Part shown: in pieces, positions 10,900 to 24,099 of the stretch | Position numbering within the stretch: the stretch's first letter is position 1 | How the letters are laid out: the number at the start of each line of letters is the position of its first letter | NCBI GenBank assembly: GCA_039182715.1 | Contig: JBCDBY010000002.1 | Span: 1-47,680, forward strand | Direction of reading: 5' to 3' | Source: Planctomycetota bacterium | GTDB taxonomy: Bacteria > Planctomycetota > PLA2 | DNA length: 47,680 nucleotides | The notes under the pieces: model-generated | The model's input: only the letters and a program-made list of their open reading frames with translations | Told to the model about the DNA's origin: nothing | The model's database searches: none | Position numbers and translations under genes: made by a program

Positions 10900-10921
10900 G
10901 TGAAGCGCCCAGCGCCCAGCG

Positions 10922-11350
10922 CTACTCGTGCTCCCACGCCTCCAGTCGGCTCTCCGACGGAAACATGCTCCCCATGAAGATCACCATCGCGAGCGCGACG
11001 CCCGCGCCGACGACGGTCGTCTTGCCTTCCATCAGGTAGGCGACGCAGCCGAGCAGCGCGGGGAACTCCGCGGAGGCGAGCCGCATGATGACCACGATCC
11101 GGAAGGAGACGAGCGTGTTCTCCTCACGGAACCGGATCACCTTGGGAATCAGCGGGTAGAGCCCGAACGACATGAGAGCCGTCGCGAGAGCAACGTAGGA
11201 GATCAGCGAGCCCGTTTCGGACTGGCCCAGCGTGGTGTCCGGCTGGTTGATCAGGAACAGGCACGCTCCGAGAAAGATCGCGGGAACGGTCGTAATCGCG
11301 ATCGCGATGATGCGGACGGCCTGAAGGGTCTGGACGCGCTCGTCGGACAT
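10922..11350 (-). CDS. Hypothetical membrane protein (about 4 TM helices)
   Basis: MSDERVQ.. with four hydrophobic segments and LASAEFPALLG; GC-rich third codon positions. Confidence 0.7.
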   Translation of the reverse strand: MSDERVQTLQAVRIIAIAITTVPAIFLGACLFLINQPDTTLGQSETGSLISYVALATALMSFGLYPLIPKVIRFREENTLVSFRIVVIMRLASAEFPALLGCVAYLMEGKTTVVGAGVALAMVIFMGSMFPSESRLEAWEHE

Positions 11351-18724: not shown

Positions 18725-19534
18725 ATGAACGTGCTTCGAATTGCTCTCTGTCTCGCCCTGTCCTGCTTCGTGATCGCCTGCGGCGGTTCCGAAGAGCCGA
18801 AGAAGACCGCCCCCGCGCCCGCCGCGGACGACGGTGGTTCCGAGGAGGAGTCGTTCGGTCGTCAGACCTACTCCGCCGACAAGGGCAGCGCCACCGTGTC
18901 CGGCACCGTGAAGTGGAGCGGCAAGGCGCCCAACCGTCGCCCGCTCGACATGGGCTCCGACAAGTTCTGCGAGAAGTGCTACGAGGGCCAGGAGGCCCCG
19001 CGCTCGATGTCCGCCGTCGTTGGTGCCAACGGCGAGTTCGCGAACATCTTCGTCTATGTCAAGAACAGCGGCGACATGAAGAACTGGAAGTTCCCGAAGG
19101 GTTCGTCCACGCGCGTGATCGACCAGGTCAAGTGCATGTACACGCCGTACCTGATCGGCGTGCAGACCGGCGACACGCTCGAGATCCGCAACAGCGACCA
19201 GACGCTGCACAACATCCACGCCACGAAGGATGGCAACGACTGGTTCAACAAGGCGCAGCCGGCCGGCTCCGACGCCTACACGACGACCGTCACCGAGGCG
19301 GGCATGTTCACGCTCAAGTGCGACGTGCACAGCTGGATGAAGTCGTTCATCTGCGTCGTCGACAACCCCTTCTTCGCCGTGACCGGCGAGGACGGCAAGT
19401 TCTCCATCCCGAGCCTGCCCGCCGGCAGCTACACGCTCGTCGCCTGGGACAGCCGCAAGGGCAAGGAGATGACCAAGGACTTCACCGTCTCCGACGGTGG
19501 CTCCGCCACGGTCGATTTCGAGTTCAGCAAATAG
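18725..19534 (+). CDS. Lipoprotein with cupredoxin-like and carboxypeptidase-regulatory-like domains
   Basis: RBS AGGAGA, lipobox VIAC, DQVKCMYTP, NSDQTLHNIH, KCDVHSWM, PFFAVTGEDGKF. Confidence 0.82.
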   Translation: MNVLRIALCLALSCFVIACGGSEEPKKTAPAPAADDGGSEEESFGRQTYSADKGSATVSGTVKWSGKAPNRRPLDMGSDKFCEKCYEGQEAPRSMSAVVGANGEFANIFVYVKNSGDMKNWKFPKGSSTRVIDQVKCMYTPYLIGVQTGDTLEIRNSDQTLHNIHATKDGNDWFNKAQPAGSDAYTTTVTEAGMFTLKCDVHSWMKSFICVVDNPFFAVTGEDGKFSIPSLPAGSYTLVAWDSRKGKEMTKDFTVSDGGSATVDFEFSK

Positions 19535-19541
19535 GAGCCTG

Positions 19542-20354
19542 ATGGAACCGCGAAGCCGCCCCCGCATCATCCTCGGTCTGGTCGCCTTCTTCGGCCTGAT
19601 CACCCTCTTCACCGTCGGGCTGTTCATGCTGCCCTGGCGGTCCGAGGTCGCCTCCGATGAGGGGGGCGGCATCGACGCGGTCATCACCTATCTGCTCGTG
19701 GCGACGGGCGCCCTCGTGGTGCTCGGGCACTACGTGCTCATCCGCTTCCTCTGGAACGGCAACGGCGAGAAGGGGTACACCCGGCCGACGCCCAAGGTGG
19801 AGTGGATGTGGGGCATCATCCCCGTCGTCATCATGATGATCCTCTCCGAGGCGGGCGTGCTGGTCGTCGGCGCGCCCACCTGGAAGAAGCTCTACGTCGA
19901 TCGCGCCGAGAACCCGGTGCAGATCGAGGTCGTCGGCAAGCAGTTCCAGTGGTACGTGCGCTACCCCGGCAAGGACGGCGTGTACGGCGACTACGACTTC
20001 GAGGAGATCGACGGCGCCGACAATCCGCTCGGCCTGCTCGACGACAGCGACGCCGCGGTCGACGACATCGTCACCTCCAAGCTGCGGCTGCCGCTGGGTC
20101 GACCGGTGCAGATCCGCATGCGCACGCACGACGTCATCCACAGCTTCTTCGTGCCGGACTTCCGCGTGAAGCAGGATCTCATTCCGGGCTTCCCGACCGA
20201 GATCCGTTTCACGCCGACGAAGCTGGGCGAGTACGAACTCGCCTGCTCCGAGCTGTGCGGCCTGGCGCACTACCGCATGAAGGCTCCCGTGCTGGTGATG
20301 GAGCCCGAGGCGTTCGACAAGTGGTTGGCCGCGCAGCGCGGTTACTTCGAGTAG
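19542..20354 (+). CDS. coxB: Cytochrome c oxidase subunit II
   Basis: Two TM helices, QFQWYVRYPG, CuA ligands DVIHSF and CSELCGLAHYRM; no fused cytochrome c. Confidence 0.95.
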   Translation: MEPRSRPRIILGLVAFFGLITLFTVGLFMLPWRSEVASDEGGGIDAVITYLLVATGALVVLGHYVLIRFLWNGNGEKGYTRPTPKVEWMWGIIPVVIMMILSEAGVLVVGAPTWKKLYVDRAENPVQIEVVGKQFQWYVRYPGKDGVYGDYDFEEIDGADNPLGLLDDSDAAVDDIVTSKLRLPLGRPVQIRMRTHDVIHSFFVPDFRVKQDLIPGFPTEIRFTPTKLGEYELACSELCGLAHYRMKAPVLVMEPEAFDKWLAAQRGYFE

Positions 20355-20366
20355 GAAGGCAACGGC

Positions 20367-22094
20367 ATGCACGAACCCATGCACGAGGCGCCGCACGCGG
20401 CCCCGACCACCTTCATCGGCAAGTACATCTTCAGCTTCGACCACAAGGTCATCGGCATTCAGTACCTCCTCACGGCGATCCTCATGGCCGTCGTGGGCGG
20501 GCTGTTGTCGCTGATGATCCGCCTGCAGCTCCAGCACCCCGAGATGCAGCTGCTCGGCCCGCCCGAGGCCTACCTCGCCTGGGTCACCATGCACGGGACC
20601 ATCATGGTCTTCTTCGTGGTGTCGCTGGCGATCAGCGGGTTCGCGAACTTCCTGATCCCACTGCAGCTCGGCGCGCGCGACATGGCCTACCCGATGCTCA
20701 ACATGTTGAGCTACTGGACCATCGTTCCGTCGGTGCTGCTGATGCTCGCCTCGTTCTTCGTGCCGGGCGGCGCGGCGGCCGCGGGCTGGACCATGTATCC
20801 GCCGCTTTCGGCGGTCCCCGAGGCGGTGCCCGGCTCCGGCCTCGGCACGACGTTCTGGCTGCTCGGCATGGCGCTCTTCATCGCGTCGTTCACGATGGGC
20901 GGCCTCAACTTCCTGACCACGATCGTCAACTGCCGCACCAAGGGCATGACGATGTGGCGCATGCCCATCGCGGTCTGGGGCTTCTTCATCGCGACGGTGC
21001 TCGGCCTGCTGGCGTTCCCGCCGCTGACGGCCGCCGCGCTGATGCTGCTCTTCGATCGCCACGGCGGCACGAGCTTCTTCGTCACCGAGATGGTGGTCAA
21101 CGACCAGGTGCTCCTGCCGGGCGCCGAGGGCACGCCGCTGCTCTTCCAGCACCTCTTCTGGTTCCTCGGCCACCCCGAGGTCTACGTGCTGGTGCTGCCG
21201 TGCGTGCTGATGACCATGGAGATCATCCCGGTCTTCACGCGCCGCCCGATGTTCGGCTACCGCCCGAGCGTCTGGGCGCTCTTCGTGATCGGGTTCCTGA
21301 GCATGATCGTGTGGGGTCACCACATGTTCGTGACCGGCATGAACCCGTACATCGGCGAGTACTTCTCGATCGCGACGGTGATCATCACGGCGCCCTTCGC
21401 GATCCTCGGCGTGAACCTGCTCGCCAGCCTCTGGCGCGCGAAGATCAAGCCCGCGGTGCCGATGCTCTTCGCGCTCGCGGTCATCTCCGCGGTCGGCTTC
21501 GGCGGCTTCGGCGGCCTGTTCCTGGGAACGGTGGTCTCCGATATCTACTTCCACGAGACCTACTTCGTGGTCGGCCACTTCCACCTCATGATCGGCACGG
21601 TCACGTTGCTGAGCCTCTTCGGCGCCCTCTACTTCTGGTACCCGAAGATGTTCGGCCGCCGCATGAGCGAGAAGCTCGGCCGGATCCACTTCTGGTTCAC
21701 CGCGGTGCCGATGATCACGATCTTCATCCTGATGCACATGCAGGGTCTCGGCGGCATGCTGCGCCGCACCTACGACCCCGGCGCCTACGACTACAACGCC
21801 GGCGCCAACATGATGCTGCGCTTCCCGATCACGGCGATGGCGTTCATCCTCTTCCTGGCGCAGTTCGTCTTCTTCTGGAACTTCTTCCGCAGCCTCAAGA
21901 ACGGGGAAGAGGTCGGCGAGAACCCGTGGGACGCGACCACGCTGGAGTGGACGACGCCCTCGCCCGCCGGCCACGGCAACTGGCCGGGCGCGCTGCCCGT
22001 CGTCGAGCACGACCCGTACGAGTACGACGGCGACGACTTCACGCCGCAGGGCAGGGTGGTCGAGACGGCTTCGGAGGAGGGCGGCAACGCGTGA
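20367..22094 (+). CDS. coxA: Cytochrome c oxidase subunit I (A1-type signature)
   Basis: TMHGTIM, GWTMYPPLS, WFLGHPEVY, VWGHHMF, VVGHFH, GMLRR. Confidence 0.97.
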   Translation: MHEPMHEAPHAAPTTFIGKYIFSFDHKVIGIQYLLTAILMAVVGGLLSLMIRLQLQHPEMQLLGPPEAYLAWVTMHGTIMVFFVVSLAISGFANFLIPLQLGARDMAYPMLNMLSYWTIVPSVLLMLASFFVPGGAAAAGWTMYPPLSAVPEAVPGSGLGTTFWLLGMALFIASFTMGGLNFLTTIVNCRTKGMTMWRMPIAVWGFFIATVLGLLAFPPLTAAALMLLFDRHGGTSFFVTEMVVNDQVLLPGAEGTPLLFQHLFWFLGHPEVYVLVLPCVLMTMEIIPVFTRRPMFGYRPSVWALFVIGFLSMIVWGHHMFVTGMNPYIGEYFSIATVIITAPFAILGVNLLASLWRAKIKPAVPMLFALAVISAVGFGGFGGLFLGTVVSDIYFHETYFVVGHFHLMIGTVTLLSLFGALYFWYPKMFGRRMSEKLGRIHFWFTAVPMITIFILMHMQGLGGMLRRTYDPGAYDYNAGANMMLRFPITAMAFILFLAQFVFFWNFFRSLKNGEEVGENPWDATTLEWTTPSPAGHGNWPGALPVVEHDPYEYDGDDFTPQGRVVETASEEGGNA

Positions 22095-22597
22095 GCCTCT
22101 CCGTCCAGCAGCGGGCCGCGTGCAACCGCACGCTCACCATGGCGGTCATCGTGACGGTCGTCATGCTCTTCACGGGGTTCGCCGCGGCGTACCTCGAACG
22201 TTCGCATACCACGGACGTGTGGCAGCGCATCGAGCTGCCGTCCGTTCTCGTCTGGAACACCGGCGTGCTGGTGCTCAGCAGCGTCGTGCTCGAGTGGGCG
22301 CGGCGTCGCGGTCGCACCGACGGCATCGCCTGGGCGACCGGACTGGGCGTGCTGTTCCTCGCGGGCCAGATCTGGTCCTGGGTCGAGCTGCGCGAGCAGG
22401 GGGTGATGGTCGCCTCCCACGCCCACGCGTCCTTCTTCTACATGTTGAGCGGCGTCCATGCGCTGCACCTGATCGGAGGGCTTTGCGCCCTCTGGGCCGC
22501 GCGCCGGAAGCGCCGCATCCTTCCGTTCGCCGCGGGTTTCTGGCACGTGATGGCCGGCGTCTGGATCTACGTCCTCGTCGTGCTGACCGTTCTTTGA
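22091..22597 (+). CDS. Cytochrome c oxidase subunit III-like protein (short)
   Basis: GTGA overlap with coxA; [33 protein letters not shown]. Confidence 0.85.
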
Positions 22598-22619
22598 TGA
22601 TCTTCTCGGGGAGAGCCGC

Positions 22620-23252
22620 ATGAGTCTGACCGCACAGACGTCGTTCACGCCGGAGCGCTGGCAGGGAGGCCTCAGCCCCTACAACCAGACCTGGCAGAAG
22701 CTGATGATGTGGATGTTCATCGTCGGCGATGCGCTGCTCTTCGGCGGCTTTCTCGCGGCCTACGGCTTCACCCGCCACGGCGCGGGCGACGCGTGGCCGG
22801 TGGTGCTGGGCGAAGGCGGCCTCTTCAGCACCGGCCTGCTCACGACGATGACCTTCGTGCTCATCACGAGCAGCGCCTTCATGGCGTGCGCGGTGTCCGC
22901 CGCGAAGGCAAACAACCGCGCCGAGACGGTGAAATGGACCTTCCTCACGCTGGCCGGCGGCGTGGTCTTCCTCGGCATGCAGGTCTACGAGTGGAGCCAC
23001 TTCATCGGGCAGGGCGCGCGCCCGTGGTTCACGCCGGGCGGCGCGGATCCGGGGTTCGCCGCCTACTTCTTCCTGATCACCGGCTTCCACGGCACGCACG
23101 TGCTCATCGGGCTCATCGTGCTGCTGGTCACCGCGCTCAACGCGAAGCGCCGTCCGGAGCTCAATCCGAACGGCGTCGAGGTCGCGGGCCTCTACTGGCA
23201 CTTCGTCGACCTCGTCTGGGTCTTCATCTTCGGCTGCTTCTACCTGCTCTAA
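22620..23252 (+). CDS. coxC: Cytochrome c oxidase subunit III
   Basis: [38 protein letters not shown]. Confidence 0.93.
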
Positions 23253-23254
23253 CC

Positions 23255-23539
23255 ATGGACGCCACGATGGACGCCACCGCAACCGCTTCCGCCCCGAACT
23301 ACAAGAAGATCTGGAAGGCGTGGGCCGCGCTGCTGGTCATCACGGTCGCCATGGTCTTCCTGCCGCACAACCTCTGGACGATCATGATCGGCATCCTGTT
23401 CAAGGTCGTGATCATCGCCGGCATCTTCATGGACCTGAAGGACGAGACGCTTGACTTCGTGATGATCGTCGGGTTCAACGTGCTCTTCTTCGCCATCCTG
23501 CTCTACGCGCTGATGGTGCCCGACGGGCTGGTGATGTGA
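23255..23539 (+). CDS. Cytochrome c oxidase subunit IV family protein
   Basis: YKKIW..LLVIT, KVVIIAGIFMDLK, three TM helices, operon position. Confidence 0.8.
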   Translation: MDATMDATATASAPNYKKIWKAWAALLVITVAMVFLPHNLWTIMIGILFKVVIIAGIFMDLKDETLDFVMIVGFNVLFFAILLYALMVPDGLVM

Positions 23540-23748
23540 TGATGCGCTGGTTGCTGACGCTACTCGTGCTGCTCGCGATGGTCACCATCGCGCGCGGCCA
23601 GGGGTGATGACCCGACGTCGGGGATGTCCCCGAGAATGCCCGTCGGGTCGACGGGATCCTGAAAGCCGCTGCCCTTCTGACGACGACCGCCCTGGTCGTG
23701 GGTAGCGCCGTGGTCTACGTGCTGCGGAACCAGGTCAAGGACGAGTAA
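23539..23748 (+). CDS. Small exported, membrane-anchored protein with tandem in-frame TGA-TGA (candidate Sec-Sec selenoprotein, 69 aa)
   Basis: TGATG coupling to subunit IV; [76 protein letters not shown]; hairpins follow the UGAs. Confidence 0.65.
23608..23655 (+). promoter_or_regulatory. Candidate SECIS-like hairpin(s)
   Basis: GACCCGACG/CGTCGGGTC lower stem, TCGGGG-ATGT-CCCCGA upper stem; alternative CCCGTC-GGGTC-GACGGG hairpin at 23639-23655. Confidence 0.5.
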
Positions 23749-23953
23749 GGCGAGGGCGCCTCGACATGGCGGTTGAGAGCGCCCCAAGAAGAGACCCCGA
23801 AAGGGGGACTCCAAAAGGGACCCCAAATGGGACCAGGGCCGGCACGATCAGGAAGCCGCCGCCCACCCCGACGATTCCCGTCAACATGCCGACGCCCAGT
23901 CCCGCGAGCGCCCGCGTCCAGCCAGGCTGAACGCCGGCGCCATGATTCTCCAT
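23735..23953 (-). pseudogene. Fragment of a TauE/SafE (sulfite exporter-like) gene
   Basis: [24 protein letters not shown] motif in only about 70 codons, followed by degenerate PFGVPFGV sequence. Confidence 0.6.
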
Positions 23954-24099
23954 ATGCGTGCGACGCAACGCGCGCTGCCTGCAGGGACGGCGCGCGTCAC
24001 GCGTGCTTCCAGCCAGTTCCAGCGCTGGCTTCGATTCCCTCGAATCTCGTATGGCGGGAGAATTGAACCCGGCTCGGTCATCCCGCTAACTTGAGGCGA

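Follow-up and report, generated by a model that had tools for sequence, protein, structure and literature searches.

Does a tandem, in-frame TGA-TGA close to the start of a small open reading frame (ORF) end a short peptide, or does it encode two adjacent selenocysteines (Sec, U)? In this study, we address this question for a gene at 23539-23748 that closes a cytochrome oxidase (cox) operon in 47,680 nucleotides of DNA from a Planctomycetota bacterium (assembly GCA_039182715.1, contig JBCDBY010000002.1, positions 1 to 47,680 of the forward strand; hereafter the window). The source is a metagenome-assembled genome (MAG) of 4.34 Mb in 407 contigs, 82% complete and with 67% G+C (G000). Comparison with relatives shows a read-through gene, whose UGAs stand at cysteine columns and are followed by a Sec-form-specific hairpin resembling a selenocysteine insertion sequence (SECIS), in a genome with selA, selB and selD. 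We regard it as almost certain that a real gene is read through here, and as very probable that both UGAs encode Sec. Taken as a whole, the best explanation, and in our judgment a strong one, would be hairpin-directed Sec-Sec decoding in an oxidase-linked membrane protein.

The upstream subunit IV frame stops with TGA at 23537-23539 and shares one base with the ATG of the small gene at 23539-23541 (ATGA). From this ATG, 22 sense codons lead to the first TGA (23605-07), directly followed by the second (23608-10), 45 further sense codons and TAA at 23746-48. G or C occupies the third position in 21 of the 22 codons before the UGAs and in 38 of the 45 after them. An initial annotation, made from the sequence alone, had proposed a candidate Sec-Sec selenoprotein here, and on re-reading its coordinates, the overlap of start and stop, the signal-peptide-like beginning, the two TGAs and the codon counts after them all proved exact. 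The parts of the gene are given below; forms of the family are named after the Sec (U) and Cys (C) residues of their motif.

23539-23748, plus strand: whole gene, 69 codons plus TAA with both UGAs read as Sec; last gene of the cox operon, with orthologs in 12 other genomes.
23539-23598, plus strand: signal-peptide-like N-terminus (20 residues) with a hydrophobic core and an A-x-A-Q-x motif that recurs in UU and CC forms.
23605-23607, plus strand: first in-frame UGA, aligned with Cys in C-U and C-C forms.
23608-23610, plus strand: second in-frame UGA, the invariant column of the family (U in UU, CU and UxxC forms, C in CxxC and CC forms), with Pro usually next.
23618-23633, plus strand: hairpin 1, UCGGGG-AUGU-CCCCGA, encoding (V)GDVPE; held by rare codons and outside the published SECIS loop rule.
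23639-23655, plus strand: hairpin 2, CCCGUCG-GGU-CGACGGG, encoding (A)RRVDG; the best SECIS candidate.
23656-23724, plus strand: predicted transmembrane helix (23 residues); the hydrophobic stretch and basic tail are kept in all forms.
23725-23745, plus strand: short charged tail, RNQVKDE, after the predicted helix.

The signal peptide is probably cut after A-x-[AG], two to three residues before the U-U pair, and the basic tail after the helix suggests a topology with the N-terminus and the pair outside and the C-terminus in the cytoplasm. A terminator scan found none on the plus strand 3′ of the gene. Two other readings of this stretch were set aside. A minus-strand ORF at 23560-23826 (88 aa) is unsupported, its frame mirroring the conserved plus-strand frame. 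A frameshift or hop at TGATGA was rejected as well: relatives do not keep the +1 or +2 frame downstream of the UGAs, the one opened by the ATG within TGATGA reaching a stop after 7 codons in one member of the family (L012), and there is no landing codon to match the one at take-off.

An open frame of 45 codons is by itself unremarkable, since spurious ORFs abound in a genome of 67% G+C. What takes the gene beyond chance is that relatives keep TGA-TGA, together with a frame conserved at the protein level, after coxIV. Orthologous cox loci were located with a CoxIII probe, and the sequence 3′ of subunit IV was read. All five complete loci (G002, G009, G010, G004 and G008) have a signal-peptide-like start, an in-frame TGATGA and a conserved frame, which after the UGAs reads ..P.LGDDP.S.RLVGGI.. 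and continues into a hydrophobic helix and a basic tail. In a genome of the same genus (G001), the gene is divided over two contig ends, the second of which opens with TGATGA. That assembly breaks within a few bases of TGATGA (contigs C209, with L013, and C164, with L055/L069), for which strain variation or hairpins may be the cause. Profile searches over 401 genomes across the phylum identified further UU forms in G111, G063, G068, G178, G382 and G078. With G000 and the six genomes named before, TGA-TGA is found at this site in at least 13 genomes from at least seven families; because 13-14 candidates were scored per genome, counts across the phylum are lower bounds. Relatives with names are Isosphaeraceae, Planctomycetaceae and Planctomycetales MAGs. 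Differences after the UGAs fall mostly at third codon positions, with 1/1/7 at first, second and third positions between G002 and G009, 12/11/24 between the window and G001, and 7/4/15 and 8/5/16 in two further comparisons. A frame kept after the UGAs was among the checks proposed by the initial annotation, and it was indeed observed, as was the persistence of both TGAs in independent assemblies and in one independent metagenome run. From that run (X2, marine sediment), a 248-nt contig covers 23483-23730 with 19 differences, none of them at 23605-23610. This related strain has changes at 23538-23540 (G>A, A>G, T>C), where the subunit IV stop and the start of the small gene overlap; hence the stop-start junction is not conserved while TGATGA is. 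The run with the best-matching DNA (X1) is probably the source sample and not independent.

Relatives also exchange Sec for Cys at these positions. TGC-TGA (Cys-Sec) is present in four of them (G391, G366, G228 and L068, the last an uncultured Planctomycetia MAG), and a Cys-Cys branch among metagenome proteins, of which 26 were aligned (A3), reads A-Q-N-C-C-[ML]-P. On one metagenome contig, a Cys-Cys member (L074) comes next after coxI, split coxIII and subunit IV, which is the operon position seen in the window. The second UGA is the only invariant internal column of the full alignment. Gene context was surveyed in 31 loci, 3 short ones being uninformative; all 11 other UU forms, 3 of the 4 CU forms and the CC form follow coxIIIN-coxIIIC-coxIV. 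The pattern that the initial annotation had described, of cox clusters with a split subunit III ending in a small protein with signal peptide, Cys motif and transmembrane helix, was seen across these loci, and the UGAs do lie where it had placed the Cys motif. The family is large: a profile search of 1.84 billion representative proteins gave 1270 relatives at E ≤ 1e-3, the Cys-Cys branch among them, and its size is put at about 1270 clusters at 50% identity.

A paralogous branch carries U-P-x-C in 13 genomes (TGA-CCN-NNN-TGY; UxxC) and C-x-x-C in 10, with both a U form (G091) and a C form (G057) held within one genus. Its U/C-P-x-C members follow SCO1 and DUF420 in five loci (Pfam confirms both neighbors for L056) and stand beside coxI, coxII or coxIII in seven others. 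The genome of the window has such a second member itself, on contig C48 at about 10912-11151 on the minus strand (L106), directly after SCO1/SenC and DUF420. There, a signal peptide ending in FAFA is followed by U-PSCRTAVAAS, a transmembrane helix and a basic tail, with a hairpin (CGGC-AGUU-GCCG) 17 nt after the UGA. An AFG-U-P-x-C-[KR] paralog with in-frame TGA was found in 10 of the 11 genomes of the window's family (L108-L116 in G002-G010), two of which, G002 and G004, have it on the contig of the UU gene, no more than about 5 kb away. In these paralogs, the U or C itself would, from the predicted cleavage site, become residue 1 of the mature protein. In nine members of all forms, no Pfam or NCBIfam model, NCBIfam selenoprotein models included, exceeded its cut-off, with one exception: the helix and basic tail of L012 gave it 21.4 bits against the LPXTG_anchor domain model, whose cut-off is 15.9, and it was the one protein of four to match. 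We rejected membership among LPXTG or C-terminal sorting-signal proteins, as the alignments have no LPXTG-type motif and the match comprises only helix and Arg/Lys tail. ESM Atlas clusters and source names give only "hypothetical protein." Public collections hold mis-called U forms (P0002, P0012, P0034, P0069 and P0137); P0002 and P0012 read WW and CW at the site, probably from TGA called as Trp, and three fragments among them begin just after the UGAs.

Every one of the 43 in-frame stops in U forms is TGA (13 × 2 in UU, 4 in CU and 13 in UxxC forms). In the window's own genome, the 1223 long ORFs end in TGA (554), TAG (550) or TAA (119). As TGA is thus an ordinary stop there, genuine stops would be expected to vary at this site; by the same stop usage, a general reassignment of TGA is ruled out.

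The genome carries selB (325.6 bits), selA (503.8) and selD (357) next to each other on contig C177 (648-4866; L001, L002 and L009), all over curated cut-offs, and selD has one in-frame TGA of its own (Sec-type SelD). The check for Sec machinery put forward by the initial annotation therefore succeeded for these three genes; for selC it did not, in an assembly that is 82% complete, where the best RF01852 matches are tRNA-Ser and blastn with selC of relatives found none. A tRNA-Sec with anticodon tca was identified in three of five UU-form relatives searched (G004, G008 and G111), and selA in all 11 of the sampled genomes in which a U form had been found by then.

The published consensus for bacterial SECIS elements, as summarized in a 2026 inventory of prokaryotic selenoproteins (PMC13188914), comprises an apical loop of 3-9 nt, a stem of 4-16 bp, a folding energy of ≤ -7.5 kcal/mol and a spacing of 16-37 nt, the loop having G in its first two positions, then G or U (Fig. 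2 legend). Two hairpins lie downstream of the UGAs in UU and CU forms. Hairpin 2, with a 7-bp stem, loop GGU and -10.6 kcal/mol, agrees with the stem, loop and energy rules, and its spacing of 34-35 nt to the second UGA (35 with the loop GGU, 34 if the loop is drawn GGGUC) is within the consensus range; elsewhere it reads CCCGCC-UGGUA-GGCGGG. Because a folding test of the whole region was weak, we adopted a targeted scan with the SECIS model and controls. Under the strict consensus, a conforming hairpin was found in 15 of 22 U forms versus 0 of 10 Cys forms, with a background in the window's genome of 5.7% of 4000 Cys codons and 7.8% of 550 TGA stops. Hairpin pairing over 14 U forms was 87.4%, versus 78.1% in shuffles and 37-54% in slid controls, and 7 of 13 pairs had changed on both sides, a degree of covariation reached by 0 of 500 shuffles. 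Hairpin 1 lies 13 nt from the second UGA in a region encoding L/V-G-D-x-P-E. Among 12 comparable U forms, 11 use GGG for its Gly and 10 use CCC for its Pro, codons with a genomic usage of 16% and 31%; judged by this codon choice, hairpin 1 appears to be under selection at the RNA level. Of the five UxxC forms first examined, four carry the UGA, 11 nt and then GGAGGC-GGUC-GCCUCC, one of them (G091) with a compensatory GGAAGC/GCUUCC stem. Another form, G358, has the loop and spacing of the other UxxC forms and one stem mismatch, and failed the strict scan. In the Cys form of the same genus as G091 (G057), a similar peptide is encoded and the hairpin is absent.

Several observations weigh against the Sec-Sec reading and have to be set beside this evidence. 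Searches of the assembly, on the 9.5-kb C177 as elsewhere in its 407 contigs (82% complete), returned no tRNA-Sec, and the co-occurrence of selA with the gene is weak evidence, given that 290 of the 401 sampled genomes have selA. Since the MAGs with U forms are related to one another, they cannot be counted as independent cases, and the sole RNA run found (X3) has no cover over the gene. As to the hairpins, the distance from hairpin 2 to the first UGA is 37-38 nt, at or just over the upper limit of 37 nt; the loop of hairpin 1 (AUGU, ACGA and similar) lacks the consensus G; 7 of the 22 U forms fail the strict scan; and folding compared with synonymous recodings gave 0.113 for the window, being significant (0.05) in only 5 of 15 U forms. 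Moreover, the peptides encoded by the hairpins (G-D-D-P, L-x-G-G) are partly kept in Cys-Cys proteins, so that constraints on protein and on RNA are confounded, a comparison behind which stands the DNA of only one Cys-Cys form. Finally, efficiency may be low, as SelB would have to reload within one codon step, for which the 2026 inventory holds no case.

How far do these points favor other explanations? Were the tandem UGA a true double stop, the last product of the operon would be a hydrophobic peptide of 22 residues; the frame beyond it would go untranslated, form a gene of its own with a non-canonical start, or be the decaying remnant of a former Cys-Cys gene. Two stops in a row normally terminate translation strongly, the first UGA has U next to it, and the missing tRNA-Sec and the lack of RNA cover in X3 fit such an outcome too. 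Yet the downstream frame is open, in the same length class and with third-position-biased changes, throughout the 13 genomes and their seven or more families, and a decaying remnant would not be kept in this way. No in-frame ATG, GTG or TTG lies between the UGAs and the transmembrane helix from which a separate gene could start, and in CU and CC orthologs, which occupy the same place in the operon, a single ORF spans both halves. All 26 stops of the UU forms are TGA and never TAG or TAA, although TAG is an equally common stop. We consider a double stop, in any of these versions, to be very improbable indeed.

Alternatively, the UGAs may be read through with one or both decoded as Cys, Trp or another residue, or as Cys on tRNA-Sec. 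The WW and CW of P0002 and P0012 might be taken to point this way, but calling of TGA as Trp is their most likely source; the DNA of all relatives read has Cys at the site and never TGG. Against such decoding also stand the 554 of 1223 long ORFs that end in TGA, the SECIS-type hairpins that follow the UGA in U forms only, and the Sec pathway genes, which together leave this alternative very unlikely. A selenium-dependent switch, to which we give slightly more credence while still holding it unlikely, would let most ribosomes stop at the tandem UGA and yield the full-length product only when Sec-tRNA is plentiful, the pair serving regulation of dosage rather than diselenide chemistry. Two recoding events in a row do multiply inefficiencies, termination in the last gene of an operon has no polar cost, and CU and CC forms indicate that the first position has no strict need for selenium. 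However, the invariant reactive C/U always has a second C/U nearby (at -1 or +3), which argues for chemistry at the pair, and UU is kept in at least seven families with no drift to CU. In any case, such a switch is compatible with Sec-Sec decoding and differs from it in emphasis only. The findings that the initial annotation had named beforehand as refuting Sec-Sec (no Sec machinery, non-Cys residues in homologs, an unconserved frame after the UGAs, sense codons in the reads) were each looked for, and none refuted the idea; decoding of both UGAs as Sec is thus the reading we carry forward.

The genes upstream of the UU gene form a heme-copper oxidase operon at 18725-23539. They are as the initial annotation had named them, now by Pfam: cupredoxin-like lipoprotein, coxII, coxI, split coxIII and a subunit IV-like gene with a weak COX4_pro match.

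18725-19531, plus strand: lipoprotein-like gene at the operon start, with a weak plastocyanin/azurin-type copper-binding match and a carboxypeptidase-regulatory-like domain; its product is possibly an electron donor or copper protein of the oxidase.
19497-20354, plus strand: coxII (Pfam COX2).
20367-22094, plus strand: coxI (Pfam COX1).
22139-22597 (N half) and 22620-23252 (C half), plus strand: split subunit III, the N half without Pfam match, the C half PF00510.
23255-23539, plus strand: subunit IV-like gene directly upstream of the UU gene (COX4_pro at E 5e-4, below cut-off; orthologs by tblastn).

Beyond the operon, a 77-codon minus-strand ORF at 23738-23968 shares 11 bases with the 3′ end of the UU gene. 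Of the 237 positions in the TauE/SafE sulfite-exporter profile, it matches 125-165 only (E 6.6e-7, below cut-off), and may be a fragment or a very short relative of that family. Many unrelated metagenome contigs stack on 23830-23895, which fits a widely conserved motif.

What might such a protein do? The 69-residue precursor would yield a small membrane-anchored protein with an exported N-terminal segment carrying Q-G-U-U-P, which after cleavage of the signal peptide would lie near the mature N-terminus. Both UGAs would be decoded by the bacterial SelB/tRNA-Sec system, directed by a hairpin within the coding region, most likely hairpin 2 (23639-23655); a single SECIS would presumably serve both, with SelB reloading after the first insertion. 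The chalcogen pair could then bind Cu(I) or perform thiol/selenol-disulfide exchange with the disulfides of SCO1 or CoxII, and so act in assembly, repair or protection of the copper centers of heme-copper oxidases. The UU, CU and CC forms after coxIII-coxIV would represent one branch of a large family defined by signal peptide, [C/U] motif and single transmembrane helix, and the U/C-P-x-C forms beside SCO1 and DUF420 another. A copper or redox role for the oxidase is suggested by the position in the cox operon, by SCO1 and DUF420 beside the paralogs and by the known chemistry of vicinal Cys/Sec motifs; on these grounds we consider the chances evenly balanced. A predicted complex of an SCO1 domain (A7) with a CxxC protein (A6, residues 22-76) gave no verdict and counts neither as support nor as counter-evidence. 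We lean, with some reserve, toward the fuller proposal of a natural protein with adjacent Sec, which would be the first from bacteria, served by a single SECIS, an exported, membrane-tethered vicinal diselenide/diselenolate that handles Cu(I) or redox chemistry as a functional counterpart of Cox17, in a large family that switches between sulfur and selenium.

For Sec to be inserted in bacteria, a hairpin has to lie at a fixed distance from its UGA. Adjacent Sec codons would put to the test both the positional slack of SelB and SECIS and the reloading of SelB within one codon step, and a natural UU example, if true, could be taken over directly as a template for the bacterial production of vicinal diselenides. 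The bacterial selenoproteins known so far are concentrated in anaerobic redox and metal metabolism; if true, our finding would add a selenoprotein to aerobic respiration and link selenium to the assembly of oxidase copper centers. The family is invisible to standard annotation, and since gene callers drop such genes, cut them or read TGA as Trp, the Planctomycetota selenoproteome and its set of oxidase accessory proteins are under-counted.

How, then, does the gene compare with known systems? The 2026 inventory of 119 prokaryotic selenoprotein families lists at most two to three Sec per family in its Table 1, and that table holds neither a UU motif nor an oxidase-linked small membrane protein (PMC13188914), in keeping with the remark of the initial annotation that adjacent Sec would be unusual in bacteria. 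Passages of the deep-Sep, BSepDB and GOS papers hold nothing alike, though their supplements may list candidates (PMC13326102, PMC12013277, PMC2398784). Neither this family nor adjacent Sec in bacteria was described in the literature searched, although supplements may name candidates. Closest are selenoproteins with paired motifs, namely CU in SaoL, SaoC, HgcA and MbdU, UxxU in NF041115 and the FmdB family, and UxxxxU in TsoB; bacterial selenoproteins with UC pairs have also been described (bioRxiv 2022.07.06.499078, PMC13188914). As far as these sources describe them, they resemble the present family in having an in-frame UGA at the Cys of homologs, two Sec/Cys close together, a role thought to concern soft metals or redox, and genes that gene callers truncate or overlook. 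They differ in that the 119 tabulated families include no adjacent Sec and no oxidase-operon protein with signal peptide and transmembrane helix. Their hosts differ as well, for the SAO and Hgc systems belong to anaerobes and the present gene to oxidase-bearing Planctomycetota.

Hairpin 2 of UU and CU forms, like the GGUC hairpin of UxxC forms, agrees in stem, loop-G[G/U] and energy with bacterial SECIS elements of the E. coli fdhF type, as modeled in bSECISearch; the spacing agrees too, for hairpin 2 as counted from the second UGA. In UxxC forms, 11 nt separate the UGA from the hairpin, as in the minimal E. coli element. Unlike those elements, the candidate hairpin would serve two UGAs, at 34-35 and 37-38 nt, and hairpin 1 intervenes. 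Among eukaryotes, multi-Sec proteins include selenoprotein P and SelL, the latter with a UxxU diselenide. Common to them and the UU gene would be more than one UGA read as Sec per mRNA and a possible diselenide; there, however, a SECIS in the 3′ untranslated region with SBP2 and eEFSec works processively, whereas the bacterial SECIS is local and position-dependent, which makes adjacent UGAs mechanistically harder in bacteria.

For the chemistry, mammalian thioredoxin reductase, with its C-terminal Gly-Cys-Sec-Gly, offers a vicinal pair that can form an eight-membered ring, and the CU forms of the present family read G-C-U-P or S-C-U-P. The likeness ends with the chalcogen pair, as the two are not homologous: the motif here lies near the N-terminus of an exported peptide and depends on bacterial decoding, while there it is the C-terminal tail of a flavoenzyme. 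Vicinal Cys-Cys pairs also occur in MerT and MerA. Mitochondrial Cox17, a soluble copper chaperone with a twin Cx9C fold and a CCxC motif, feeds Sco1 and Cox11. Like it, the present protein is small, has forms with adjacent Cys and is linked to Sco1 and oxidase copper, here by gene neighborhood; but it would be a single-pass membrane peptide, and as no aligned member has a Cx9C motif, we rejected membership among Cox17-type chaperones and regard the likeness as an analogy of function only. Set against all of these, the gene would add a new family to the selenoproteins made by the known bacterial Sec system, and its two adjacent Sec codons would be new in kind.

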